Part shown: positions 1 to 32,300 of the stretch, piece after piece | Layout: each line of letters begins with the position of its first letter | Numbering within the stretch: position 1 is the stretch's first letter | Source of the DNA: Eledone cirrhosa | Taxonomy: Eukaryota | Direction: 5' to 3' | Assembly: GCA_964016885.1 (NCBI GenBank) | Contig: OZ024743.1 | Span: 225,680,001-225,744,000, forward strand | DNA length: 64,000 nt | Position numbers and translations under genes: made by a program | The notes under the pieces: model-generated | What the model saw: only the letters and a program-made list of their open reading frames with translations | What the model was told of the DNA's origin: nothing | Database searches by the model: none

Positions 1-3000
1 AACAAACTGAACAGCCTGAATTTATGCCATACGGTGTTAAGGCAACCACGTCACCTTTTTGTTCAACACTGACACAGGAACGATGTACTAGTTTCAAGCT
101 TGTTAGCTATCATCAGCACCGTTTACCCATCTGCCAGATAGTTGAACGTTCGAAAGTATATACTTTCCTTATGAAAATTAACGGCTGAACAGCCTAATTT
201 GCATATTGAGTGAGTTAAATCGGTCAGGCATACCGAAAACGATAAATTGAAACAAAATGAAAACAAAATTTCATTTCTCACTCTTAGTATGGCACTTACT
301 TAAATGTAAGTATGCATGTATACGTACATACATATATGTATACAGACGTACAGTAGCATGCACATATATATATATATATACATATATATATACATATGCA
401 TACAGGTACACATACATATATGCACGTATCAGTTTAGCGGCGCTAACGTCGCTTTGTTCGTTTGTAAACAAACTGAACAGCCTGAATTTATGCCATACGG
501 TGTTAAGGCAACCACGTCACCTTTTTGTTCAACACTGACACAGGAACGATGTACTAGTTTCAAGCTTGTTAGCTATCATCAGCACCGTTTACCCATCTGC
601 CAGATAGTTGAACGTTCGAAAGTATATACTTTCCTTATGAAAATTAACGGCTGAGCAGCCTAATTTGCATATTGAGTGAGTTAAATCGGTCAGGCATACC
701 GAAAACGATAAATTGAAACAAAATGAAAACAAAATTTCATTTCTCACTCTTAGTATGGCACTTACTTAAATGTAAGTATGCATGTATACGTACATACATA
801 TATGTATACAGACGTACAGTAGCATGCACATATATATATATATATACATATATATATACATATGCATACAGGTACACATACATATATGCACGTATCAGTT
901 TAGCGGCGCTAACGTCGCTTTGTTCGTTTGTAAACAAACTGAACAGCCTGAATTTATGCCATACGGCAGATGGGTAAACGGTGCTGATGATAGCTAACAA
1001 GCTTGAAACTAGTACATCGTTCCTGTGTCAGTGTTGAACAAAAAGGTGACGTGGTTGCCTTAACACCGTATGGCATAAATTCAGGCTGTTCAGTTTGTTT
1101 ACAAACGAACAAAGCGACGTTAGCGCCGCTAAACTGATACGTGCATATATGTATGTGTACCTGTATGCATATGTATATATATATGTATATATATATATAT
1201 ATGTGCATGCTACTGTACGTCTGTATACATATATGTATGTACGTATACATGCATACTTACATTTAAGTAAGTGCCATACTAAGAGTGAGAAATGAAATTT
1301 TGTTTTCATTTTGTTTCAATTTATCGTTTTCGGTATGCCTGACCGATTTAACTCACTCAATATGCAAATTAGGCTGCTCAGCCGTTAATTTTCATAAGGA
1401 AAGTATATACTTTCGAACGTTCAACTATCTGGCAGATGGGTAAACGGTGCTGATGATAGCTAACAAGCTTGAAACTAGTACATCGTTCCTGTGTCAGTGT
1501 TGAACAAAAAGGTGACGTGGTTGCCTTAACACCGTATGGCATAAATTCAGGCTGTTCAGTTTGTTTACAAACGAACAAAGCGACGTTAGCGCCGCTAAAC
1601 TGATACGTGCATATATGTATGTGTACCTGTATGCATATGTATATATATATGTATATATATATATATATGTGCATGCTACTGTACGTCTGTATACATATAT
1701 GTATGTACGTATACATGCATACTTACATTTAAGTAAGTGCCATACTAAGAGTGAGAAATGAAATTTTGTTTTCATTTTGTTTCAATTTATCGTTTTCGGT
1801 ATGCCTGACCGATTTAACTCACTCAATATGCAAATTAGGCTGCTCAGCCGTTAATTTTCATAAGGAAAGTATATACTTTCGAACGTTCAACTATCTGGCA
1901 GATGGGTAAACGGTGCTGATGATAGCTAACAAGCTTGAAACTAGTACATCGTTCCTGTGTCAGTGTTGAACAAAAAGGTGACGTGGTTGCCTTAACACCG
2001 TATGGCATAAATTCAGGCTGTTCAGTTTGTTTACAAACGAACAAAGCGACGTTAGCGCCGCTAAACTGATACGTGCATATATGTATGTGTACCTGTATGC
2101 ATATGTATATATATATGTATATATATATATATATGTGCATGCTACTGTACGTCTGTATACATATATGTATGTACGTATACATGCATACTTACATTTAAGT
2201 AAGTGCCATACTAAGAGTGAGAAATGAAATTTTGTTTTCATTTTGTTTCAATTTATCGTTTTCGGTATGCCTGACCGATTTAACTCACTCAATATGCAAA
2301 TTAGGCTGCTCAGCCGTTAATTTTCATAAGGAAAGTATATACTTTCGAACGTTCAACTATCTGGCAGATGGGTAAACGGTGCTGATGATAGCTAACAAGC
2401 TTGAAACTAGTACATCGTTCCTGTGTCAGTGTTGAACAAAAAGGTGACGTGGTTGCCTTAACACCGTATGGCATAAATTCAGGCTGTTCAGTTTGTTTAC
2501 AAACGAACAAAGCGACGTTAGCGCCGCTAAACTGATACGTGCATATATGTATGTGTACCTGTATGCATATGTATATATATATGTATATATATATATATAT
2601 GTGCATGATACTGTACGTCTGTATACATATATGTATGTACGTATACATGCATACTTACATTTAAGTAAGTGCCATACTAAGAGTGAGAAATGAAATTTTG
2701 TTTTCATTTTGTTTCAATTTATCGTTTTCGGTATGCCTGACCGATTTAACTCACTCAATATGCAAATTAGGCTGCTCAGCCGTTAATTTTCATAAGGAAA
2801 GTATATACTTTCGAACGTTCAACTATCTGGCAGATGGGTAAACGGTGCTGATGATAGCTAACAAGCTTGAAACTAGTACATCGTTCCTGTGTCAGTGTTG
2901 AACAAAAAGGTGACGTGGTTGCCTTAACACCGTATGGCATAAATTCAGGCTGTTCAGTTTGTTTACAAACGAACAAAGCGACGTTAGCGCCGCTAAACTG

Positions 3001-3128
3001 ATACGTGCATATATGTATGTGTACCTGTATGCATATGTATATATATATGTATATATATATATATATGTGCATGCTACTGTACGTCTGTATACATATATGT
3101 ATGTACGTATACATGCATACTTACATTT
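1..3128. repeat. Tandem array of a 466-bp hammerhead-containing unit (retrozyme/PLE pLTR-like) with one internal inversion at ~966
   Basis: Period 466 (AACAAACTGA at 1, 467, 933; CAGATGGG at 967, 1433, 1899, 2365, 2831). 1-966 is the reverse complement of the units in 967-3128. The right end runs into (TA)n. Only two variants seen (189, 2608). The left arm runs off the window edge. Confidence 0.97.
977..1021 (+). ncRNA. Type I hammerhead ribozyme (also 1443-1487, 1909-1953, 2375-2419, 2841-2885 on +; 79-123 and 545-589 on -)
   Basis: AACGGTG-CTGATGA-T-AGCT-AACA-AGCT-T-GAAA-CTAG-TA^-CATCGTT. 7-bp stem I, 4-bp stem II, palindromic minimal stem III (ACTAGT). Predicted cleavage GUA after 1014. 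Confidence 0.9.
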
Positions 3129-29321: not shown

Positions 29322-32300
29322 ATATATATGTGAATATAGACATAGAATATTCGAAAATATTCTGTATGTTTATAATAAACATTTTGAAGACCTAATCGCT
29401 ATAGAATAGAATACGTCACGTATTACAATTATATTCTCGATAAAAGCAAGGGAAGTAATCTACGCGTTTCATTCTTGTTAGAAATCATCAGGACTACATA
29501 TCCAGTGCTTTTATCGAGAATGACACAGCTAGAGACTTATAGAATACTTAGCTGTGTACAGGAACTGGTTTGAAAGAGCGGTTGCCGGTCCGGCAGAAAT
29601 TAGAAATTGGAATAAATGCTCTGAAATAGCGATATATATGTGAATATAGACATAGAATATTCGAAAATATTCTGTATGTTTATAATAAACATTTTGAAGA
29701 CCTAATCGCTATAGAATAGAATACGTCACGTATTACAATTATATTCTCGATAAAAGCAAGGGAAGTAATCTACGCGTTTCATTCTTGTTAGAAATCATCA
29801 GGACTACATATCCAGTGCTTTTATCGAGAATGACACAGCTAGAGACTTATAGAATACTTAGCTGTGTACAGGAACTGGTTTGAAAGAGCGGTTGCCGGTC
29901 CGGCAGAAATTAGAAATTGGAATAAATGCTCTGAAATAGCGATATATATGTGAATATAGACATAGAATATTCGAAAATATTCTGTATGTTTATAATAAAC
30001 ATTTTGAAGACCTAATCGCTATAGAATAGAATACGTCACGTATTACAATTATATTCTCGATAAAAGCAAGGGAAGTAATCTACGCGTTTCATTCTTGTTA
30101 GAAATCATCAGGACTACATATCCAGTGCTTTTATCGAGAATGACACAGCTAGAGACTTATAGAATACTTAGCTGTGTACAGGAACTGGTTTGAAAGAGCG
30201 GTTGCCGGTCCGGCAGAAATTAGAAATTGGAATAAATGCTCTGAAATAGCGATATATATGTGAATATAGACATAGAATATTCGAAAATATTCTGTATGTT
30301 TATAATAAACATTTTGAAGACCTAATCGCTATAGAATAGAATACGTCACGTATTACAATTATATTCTCGATAAAAGCAAGGGAAGTAATCTACGCGTTTC
30401 ATTCTTGTTAGAAATCATCAGGACTACATATCCAGTGCTTTTATCGAGAATGACACAGCTAGAGACTTATAGAATACTTAGCTGTGTACAGGAACTGGTT
30501 TGAAAGAGCGGTTGCCGGTCCGGCAGAAATTAGAAATTGGAATAAATGCTCTGAAATAGCGATATATATGTGAATATAGACATAGAATATTCGAAAATTT
30601 CTAATTTCTGCCGGACCGGCAACCGCTCTTTCAAACCAGTTCCTGTACACAGCTAAGTATTCTATAAGTCTCTAGCTGTGTCATTCTCGATAAAAGCACT
30701 GGATATGTAGTCCTGATGATTTCTAACAAGAATGAAACGCGTAGATTACTTCCCTTGCTTTTATCGAGAATATAATTGTAATACGTGACGTATTCTATTC
30801 TATAGCGATTAGGTCTTCAAAATGTTTATTATAAACATACAGAATATTTTCGAATATTCTATGTCTATATTCACATATATATCGCTATTTCAGAGCATTT
30901 ATTCCAATTTCTAATTTCTGCCGGACCGGCAACCGCTCTTTCAAACCAGTTCCTGTACACAGCTAAGTATTCTATAAGTCTCTAGCTGTGTCATTCTCGA
31001 TAAAAGCACTGGATATGTAGTCCTGATGATTTCTAACAAGAATGAAACGCGTAGATTACTTCCCTTGCTTTTATCGAGAATATAATTGTAATACGTGACG
31101 TATTCTATTCTATAGCGATTAGGTCTTCAAAATGTTTATTATAAACATACAGAATATTTTCGAATATTCTATGTCTATATTCACATATATATCGCTATTT
31201 CAGAGCATTTATTCCAATTTCTAATTTCTGCCGGACCGGCAACCGCTCTTTCAAACCAGTTCCTGTACACAGCTAAGTATTCTATAAGTCTCTAGCTGTG
31301 TCATTCTCGATAAAAGCACTGGATATGTAGTCCTGATGATTTCTAACAAGAATGAAACGCGTAGATTACTTCCCTTGCTTTTATCGAGAATATAATTGTA
31401 ATACGTGACGTATTCTATTCTATAGCGATTAGGTCTTCAAAATGTTTATTATAAACATACAGAATATTTTCGAATATTCTATGTCTATATTCACATATAT
31501 ATCGCTATTTCAGAGCATTTATTCCAATTTCTAATTTCTGCCGGACCGGCAACCGCTCTTTCAAACCAGTTCCTGTACACAGCTAAGTATTCTATAAGTC
31601 TCTAGCTGTGTCATTCTCGATAAAAGCACTGGATATGTAGTCCTGATGATTTCTAACAAGAATGAAACGCGTAGATTACTTCCCTTGCTTTTATCGAGAA
31701 TATAATTGTAATACGTGACGTATTCTATTCTATAGCGATTAGGTCTTCAAAATGTTTATTATAAACATACAGAATATTTTCGAATATTCTATGTCTATAT
31801 TCACATATATATCGCTATTTCAGAGCATTTATTCCAATTTCTAATTTCTGCCGGACCGGCAACCGCTCTTTCAAACCAGTTCCTGTACACAGCTAAGTAT
31901 TCTATAAGTCTCTAGCTGTGTCATTCTCGATAAAAGCACTGGATATGTAGTCCTGATGATTTCTAACAAGAATGAAACGCGTAGATTACTTCCCTTGCTT
32001 TTATCGAGAATATAATTGTAATACGTGACGTATTCTATTCTATAGCGATTAGGTCTTCAAAATGTTTATTATAAACATACAGAATATTTTCGAATATTCT
32101 ATGTCTATATTCACATATATATCGCTATTTCAGAGCATTTATTCCAATTTCTAATTTCTGCCGGACCGGCAACCGCTCTTTCAAACCAGTTCCTGTACAC
32201 AGCTAAGTATTCTATAAGTCTCTAGCTGTGTCATTCTCGATAAAAGCACTGGATATGTAGTCCTGATGATTTCTAACAAGAATGAAACGCGTAGATTACT

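Follow-up and report, generated by a model that had tools for sequence, protein, structure and literature searches.

Two tandem arrays in an Eledone cirrhosa genome carry a predicted, structurally conserved hammerhead motif with a U·U opening of stem II

Two arrays of hammerhead-bearing repeats

The stretch of DNA analyzed here, referred to as the window, comprises 64,000 nucleotides of Eledone cirrhosa (assembly GCA_964016885.1, contig OZ024743.1, positions 225,680,001 to 225,744,000 of the forward strand). It is AT-rich, rich in microsatellites, and contains transposase fragments and fragments of long interspersed nuclear elements (LINEs). Two tandem arrays within it carry one hammerhead ribozyme motif per unit (n = 7 in array 1 and n = 23 in array 2). 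These arrays are probably retrozymes lacking long terminal repeats (non-LTR retrozymes) that are copied by the proteins of Penelope-like elements (PLEs), with a type I hammerhead of canonical geometry in each unit.

Both arrays consist of a forward arm and an inverted arm. The forward arm of array 1 (965 to 3129, +) holds 4.6 units of 466 bp with five hammerheads (position C3 at 984, 1450, 1916, 2382, and 2848) and has a (TA)n tract at its end; its inverted arm (1 to 966, −) holds about 2.1 units with C3 at 582 and 116 and continues beyond the window edge. The forward arm of array 2 (30596 to 36488, +) contains 19.0 units of 310 bp and 19 hammerheads (30713 to 36291), stops at unit position 167, and is followed by (TA)n. 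Its inverted arm (29322 to 30598, −) contains 4.1 units and four hammerheads (30421 to 29491) and gives way to (TA)n at unit position 139 or earlier. The inverted arms differ from the forward units by only 1 mismatch in 966 bp for array 1 and 0 in 1,277 bp for array 2, so both inserts are young. Outside the hammerhead, the unit bodies of the two arrays match only in TA-rich sequence, and the 466-bp unit contains a TA expansion. Neither array contains an open reading frame (ORF) of at least 120 amino acids, and a tRNA search gave no match.

The inverted copies are near perfect, as would be expected if they were fold-back chimeras created during assembly. Such an artifact is extremely unlikely: array 2 has arms that stop at different positions of the unit and in different flanks, the same inverted, (TA)n-bounded layout is shared by a number of unrelated elements, including diverged ones, and head-to-tail unit joints are visible in three runs.

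A type I hammerhead motif with a U·U opening

Stem I has 6 bp in both arrays, and the motif reads CUGAUGA-U-N4-AACA-N4-U-GAAA-(CUAG or CGCG)-UA. In array 1 (977 to 1021, +) it has a 6- to 7-bp stem I, the core at 984, a U10.1·U11.1 mispair followed by 3 bp and the hexaloop UAACAA, the palindrome ACUAGU, and a predicted cut after GUA (1014). In array 2 (30707 to 30749, +) the 6-bp stem I lies within a long rod, U10.1·U11.1, the 3 bp, and the hexaloop UAACAA are the same, the palindrome is ACGCGU, and the predicted cut follows GUA at 30743. A descriptor made up of the core, a 14-nt spacer with three pairs, the stem III pair, and a 6-bp stem I matched these 30 copies in the window, compared with none in 600 first-order Markov windows. 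CUGANGA, GAAA, A15.1-U16.1, H17, and an open helix I, which define the class, are present in 30 of 30 array copies. Helix I of 6 bp, helix II of four positions (the first being U·U), and helix III of 1 to 2 bp with a palindromic loop of 2 to 4 nt correspond to the canonical geometry of metazoan type I hammerheads (Cervera 2014). The paired N10.1-N11.1 of the strict consensus, as used in the filter of Perreault 2011, is lacking in both arrays, and the array motifs belong with the published U·U variants, outside the strict consensus hammerhead. The sequence-only reading that preceded this analysis had given the letters and coordinates of both array motifs correctly, along with A·A in the motif at 27094 and U·U in the one at 17740, whose inverted twin at 17586 has U·U as well.

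Beyond the window, a metagenome pattern scan yielded eight matches; six were dropped as unpaired, and the two kept, L003 and L008, constitute one family (97% identical). Together with the two array motifs they form a gap-free alignment of four rows representing three families. The scored structure, read from the rows themselves, consisted of an outer helix, a 6-bp stem I, a 3-bp stem II, and a 2-bp stem III. All 56 cells were paired, 9 of the 14 pairs showed double changes, and none of 500 shuffles matched the score; this was a shuffle test rather than R-scape, on three families, with L003 kept for its pairing. Between array 1 and array 2 alone there were seven double-sided changes, one one-sided change, and no broken pair. 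Helices I and II and the outer helix covary across three independent families; helix III is a single pair in the monomer and six pairs in the dimer. The proposal that the RNA structure is under selection is supported by this covariation.

It had also been claimed that all stems differ between the arrays with pairing kept. Pairing is indeed kept, but the differences do not extend to all positions. CUAACAAG is identical and only two of the four stem II pairs differ; four of the six stem I pairs are changed on both sides and two are identical; and in stem III the central dinucleotide is changed from UA to GC while both outer pairs are identical. The central change in the palindrome is compensatory in the dimer only. 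A separate RNAalifold run on array 2 and its sister unit (described below) gave double changes in 7 of 35 pairs; the automatic alignment was poor and the result was set aside.

In loop 1, the 5′ UA and the 3′ U are invariant across the three families, as is the terminal A of loop 2. A contact between loops 1 and 2 has been described for canonical type I motifs (Cervera 2014), and the invariant loop 1 bases are consistent with such a contact, which the RNAs of these families may form. Taken at the level of sequence, the young retrozyme-like arrays carry a real, structurally conserved predicted hammerhead.

The sister family and natural variation in stem-loop II

Across the (TA)n tract that terminates array 2 sits a sister family (36578 to 37321) with a 317-bp unit, an inverted arm, (TA)n ends, and three hammerheads (C3 at 36779, −; 36842, +; and 37159, +). 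Its unit aligns end to end with the array 2 unit. Its hammerhead has a U3-A8 core, G10.1-C11.1, 4 bp with a hexaloop, and a 12-nt near-palindrome, and a covariance model of the array motif reaches it only at an E value of about 0.3.

Variation within the 310-bp family was read from the contigs of one run that contains the unit (X1, 573 contigs), so that the fractions given here are contig depths and not allele frequencies. Summed depth exceeded 3 × 10^5 over most of the unit, which is not a copy number. Three differences from the array 2 unit reached at least 4%. The first, 31030 T>A, changes position 10.1 so that a Watson-Crick A-U pair is formed (107,712 of 495,536 depth, 22%, nine contigs), and the second, 31038 A>G, turns AACA into AACG (157,537 of 528,969 depth, 30%, 13 contigs). 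The third, 31082 A>C, is nearly fixed in X1, and the window letter at this position is therefore the rare one. The two common variants both fall inside the 14-nt stem-loop II (post hoc p of about 0.002). With the sister family included, one lineage therefore shows U·U, A-U, and G-C at the opening of stem II.

Words from the 310-bp unit (30890 to 31199) were also encountered more widely, with 0.69 to 0.96 of 26 sampled words present in 20 of the 24 runs listed (16 studies, 17 organism codes). In X11 and X19, which come from two other organisms, the unit was a single closed 340-nt contig without flank, at depths of 34 and 14, and the stem-loop II alleles of the two differed. The cross-organism signal is best explained by carry-over, in traces, of a repeat that is highly abundant. 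The X11 contig has A10.1, the minority state of X1 (naive binomial p of about 8 × 10^−5), which weighs against one common source. Close kinship of the organisms could also account for the signal, as could movement of the unit between species, which seems very improbable.

Is the U·U opening with AACA a distinct subtype?

The earlier reading took U·U and the AACA loop as marks of an unusual hammerhead subtype; on the strict version of this view, both features are required and held by selection. Some observations favor this. U·U and AACAA are common to two arrays in which only the hammerhead aligns, and also to L003 and L008 outside the window. The latter share GUA and the UA-N/U loop as well, neither of which was demanded by the search pattern. 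In viral sequences, among the matches listed, a relaxed U·U pattern gave a paired stem II in 4 of 120 loci and a complete motif in none, compared with 122 loci for G-C hammerheads of like spacing, of which 62 had a paired stem II and 13 were complete (7 distinct). Two stricter viral pattern scans gave no matches, and 11 pattern matches in prokaryote genomes included none with both stems.

Nevertheless, a distinct subtype is unlikely. The signature is not invariant: A10.1 and AACG make up sizeable fractions of depth in the array 2 family, and the sister family has G-C. The pattern that retrieved L003 itself demanded U·U and AACA, and U10.1·U11.1, while rare, is already known from published hammerheads. 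AACA is likely to be the middle of an ordinary 6-nt loop 2 and not a special tetraloop, judging from the aligned sequences. The consensus stem II of Rfam family HH9 has four pairs and a hexaloop, and the arrays place U·U at the first of these pairs and UAACAA as the loop. L003 and L008 have U·U, 3 bp, and the hexaloop AAACAA, with A·A at the proposed fourth pair, which means that the fourth stem II "pair" is missing in two of the four aligned rows. In all seven distinct phage G-C hammerheads among the matches listed, retrieved with a pattern that left the loop free, the hexaloop begins with U.

In L003 (584 to 760) and L008, the U·U type I hammerhead lies about 40 bp ahead of a telomere-like (TAACCC)n tract. 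A motif ahead of a telomere-like tract has been described for endonuclease-free PLEs, and the tract may link L003 to this group.

Two solitary motifs in the window had been mentioned alongside the arrays for their unpaired opening. The element near 17.5 kb exists as an inverted twin (17480 to 17619, −; C3 at 17586) and a forward twin (17707 to 17846, +; C3 at 17740). The inverted twin has U·U, an intact 8-bp stem II, an 8-nt palindrome, an AUA triplet, and a 4-bp stem I; in the forward twin, which has a (TA)n end, one stem II pair is broken. The second motif, hammerhead-like (27091 to 27135, +), has an A·A opening, a bulged stem II, an imperfect palindrome, and a 3-bp stem I and lies about 50 bp ahead of an (AT)n tract. 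Neither has AACA, their stem II regions span 31 or 21 nt, their stem I is 3 to 4 bp, and at an E value of 5 or less the covariance model of the array motif gave no match at 17740/17586 or at 27094. These are different architectures that share only the unpaired opening. With their long stem II and short stem I, both are nearer than the arrays to the hammerheads of PLE pseudo-LTRs (pLTRs). About 700 bp upstream of 27094, broken reading frames (25950 to 26400, +) carry motifs resembling those of PLE endonucleases, but the suspected endonuclease was not backed by Pfam. Two further hammerhead candidates, at 39015 and 52588, pair poorly in their stems.

U·U is thus found in three of the five window families examined (array 1, array 2, and the 17.5-kb element). 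It is notable that U·U turns up in three families whose bodies are unrelated, in combination with a helix III of one pair.

Predicted folding as monomers and dimers

Each of the five window families examined has a self-complementary stem III region; the match is perfect in four (G·U counted) and has one central mismatch at 27094. A two-pair stem III in the monomer would leave a loop of 2 nt, and the energy model does not permit loops this short. With two copies of the array 2 motif, the minimum-energy fold is a double hammerhead at −20.7 kcal/mol, compared with −14.6 kcal/mol for two monomers. Together, the self-complementarity and this predicted fold support the role in dimers that had been proposed for the palindrome. 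U·U carries a predicted cost of 3.4 to 3.6 kcal/mol relative to G-C and of 1.4 to 1.6 kcal/mol relative to A-U. The units as a whole are predicted to fold far better than their shuffles (z of −4.09 and −8.36, 0 of 100 shuffles each), although the TA tract exaggerates the value for array 1.

We consider it likely, by analogy with related ribozymes, that the arrays would be cleaved mainly as dimers. Since the predicted folds were mixed, as detailed below, dimer cleavage rests on homology and on conservation of the palindrome more than on energies.

A probable Penelope-type route of mobilization

Tandem repeats with a type I hammerhead in each unit and with neither LTR nor ORF are among the marks of a non-LTR retrozyme, and this is the composition of both arrays. 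The 310-bp unit of array 2 lies inside the published range of 150 to 450 bp. PLEs are described as forming inverted, 5′-truncated copies at (TA)n targets with a tail of 30 to 40 bp on one side, attributed to two internal start sites of the reverse transcriptase, and animal retrozymes have been argued to be nonautonomous PLEs (bioRxiv 10.64898/2026.07.22.740005). In the window, every visible array end abuts (TA)n. The arms of array 2 end at unit positions of 139 or less (inverted) and 167 (forward), which amounts to a one-sided extension of at least 28 bp (36461 to 36488, +), by inference a Penelope-type tail; the sister family also shows a one-sided extension, of about 39 bp. An inverted 5′-truncated arm, a microsatellite target, and a one-sided tail are therefore present in array 2 and the sister family, while the left end of array 1 lies beyond the window.

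We propose the following scheme. As in published relatives, a read-through transcript would carry several copies of the hammerhead motif. Poor cutting would be expected of a single copy, given its one-pair stem III and the weakening of stem II by U·U. Two copies could pair via the palindrome into a double hammerhead that cuts after GUA, and cleavage would free a unit-length, highly self-paired RNA able to circularize. A Penelope-type reverse transcriptase/endonuclease could next initiate within the unit, close to the TA tract, so that multiunit cDNA would enter genomic (TA)n. Under this scheme U·U would be a tolerated variant, probably lowering activity, and AACA would be part of the ordinary contact between loops 1 and 2.

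Several results weigh against this interpretation. There were no matches to Rfam at the gathering level, and the array motifs score only 19.2 and 18.5 bits with the HH9 model, against a gathering threshold of 52. The 466-bp unit of array 1 is slightly above the published size range. The minimum-energy fold of two array 1 copies is a non-hammerhead dimer (−27.7 kcal/mol), and the active dimer (−21.0 kcal/mol) is weaker than two monomers (−23.2 kcal/mol). In a model of two-unit transcripts, which leaves tertiary contacts out, the probability of a swapped stem III is about 0 for both arrays, and that of stem II in array 2 is only 0.13 to 0.16. An Anolis PLE is reported to insert in vitro without the need for hammerhead cleavage. 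Finally, among the elements of the window the arrays matched only the sister family, and no autonomous PLE there could be tied to them.

The weak stem II predicted for array 2 would also be expected if the arrays were ordinary satellite DNA that unequal crossover had expanded from a defunct Penelope end, with hammerheads that are no longer active, and local amplification of satellites from pLTRs has been proposed (bioRxiv 10.64898/2026.07.22.740005). This explanation appears quite improbable. Arms on either side of the inversion are 99.9 to 100% identical, and the forward arm of array 2 comprises a whole number of units and stops at the tail, as expected of an insert that was already multimeric on arrival. 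The cores are intact in 30 of 30 copies, and compensatory changes accompany the divergence of the families. Copying of retrozymes by PLE proteins remains the reading that we consider probable.

Given such copying, the U·U opening may be more than tolerated. It is possible, though we hold this tentatively, that it is a selected attenuator which spares monomers and circles from being cut again, so that multimers alone are processed, with A-U as a faster allele maintained in the family. Its recurrence across the window families, its predicted cost, and the clustering of both common 310-bp polymorphisms in stem-loop II, otherwise unexplained, fit this idea, and U·U is the best-tolerated mispair at 10.1-11.1 (PMC3088659, citing older work). 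However, the single pair of stem III is by itself enough to block the monomer and makes a second brake superfluous, the sister family has spread with G-C, the depth fractions stem from contigs of one run, and the clustering test was post hoc.

More broadly, we offer as a speculation that the retrozymes of this genome tune their own ribozyme, with U10.1·U11.1 and the one-pair stem III making a doubly braked, dimer-only cutter and with the U·U, A-U, and G-C series of one lineage as its variants. If this is true, cleavage rate set against copy number and age would show whether retrozyme spread selects for intermediate activity; the array 2 lineage is a natural allelic series on whether ribozyme speed matters for spread. 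U·U retrozymes are probably undercounted in animal genomes, because standard descriptors and Rfam thresholds miss such motifs. Penelope-type ends on a hammerhead-bearing tandem repeat also support the proposed route of mobilization.

Other elements in the window

Four short, (TA)n-bounded fold-back elements (3181 to 3310, 3389 to 3594, 7646 to 7826, and 16965 to 17301) are partly interrelated, have half hammerhead-like cores, and are probably further truncated insertions of PLE type. A minimal-type hammerhead with an extra base, a G-C opening, and a 6-bp stem II lies at 39292 to 39320 (−), downstream of an 89-amino-acid fragment (39517 to 39783, −). The fragment may be the GIY-YIG end of a PLE; it fell at 0.93 into an Atlas cluster with 15% GIY-YIG, which is a lead only, and Pfam and a homologue search returned no match for it.

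Degenerate LINE copies with endonuclease, reverse transcriptase, and zf-RVT domains occupy 20317 to 23872 (−) and 59455 to 62702 (+). A repeat of 470 to 650 bp is present in five copies of 91 to 96% identity (3611 to 4082, 7933 to 8536, 19440 to 20060, 51804 to 52448, and 55561 to 56210) and is related to a broken transposase-like element near 9000 to 10350. At 43043 to 44876, a 12-bp unit is repeated about 150 times, with a higher-order period of 61 bp, and a repeat resembling a short interspersed nuclear element occurs at about eight places.

Comparison with known hammerheads and retrozymes

Among the known systems close to the arrays is Rfam Hammerhead_HH9 (RF02275), to which both align gap-free through stem I, core, and stem II (E values of 0.025 and 0.036), with a four-position stem II, a hexaloop, and the same C-G closing pair. 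The arrays differ from it in their short stem III and in having U·U where HH9 has G-C, and HH9 is a structural reference for them and not a family assignment.

PLEs and pLTR hammerheads (PMC4209133, PMC8557442, PMC11167929, bioRxiv 10.64898/2026.07.22.740005) resemble the arrays in tandem and inverted 5′-truncated copies, (TA)n, a tail, and a palindromic helix III. The pLTR hammerheads are minimal and carry an extra base as well as G10.1-C11.1, whereas the arrays have the canonical geometry of 6 bp and 4 bp and no ORF. No paper specific to cephalopod retrozymes was among the matches listed in the literature. The combination of U·U and a one-pair palindromic helix III in one motif was not found in the texts cited here, figures and supplements aside, and this is not a claim of its absence.

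Perreault et al. 2011 (PMC3088659) report a natural stem II opening with U10.1-U11.1 as a rare exception, and repeat-type ribozymes in that work, like the arrays, have dimer models built on a palindromic stem III and loop III. A rarity there, U·U is here the predominant state of a highly abundant family. Because the filter used in that study rejected mispairs at 10.1-11.1, U·U families were probably undercounted.

The axolotl non-LTR retrozymes HHR_Amex1 and HHR_Amex2 (Cervera and de la Peña 2020, PMC7229834) are tandem repeats of 310- to 350-bp units with one type I hammerhead each, and helix III of Amex1, like that of the arrays, consists of one pair closed by a palindromic tetraloop. Both are reported to cleave far better as dimers. 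An axolotl hammerhead with a basal U·U in helix II showed 22% monomer cleavage in 1 h and much more as a dimer, and circular RNAs were seen. There, U·U is paired with a stronger helix III (the exact position and loop in Amex2 are unconfirmed), whereas the arrays unite both weak features in one ribozyme; the array 1 unit, at 466 bp, is longer, and cleavage was measured for the axolotl motifs while the arrays are known from sequence. The arrays add members to a known class, since both the U·U opening and the dimer mechanism have been published for the same kind of element.

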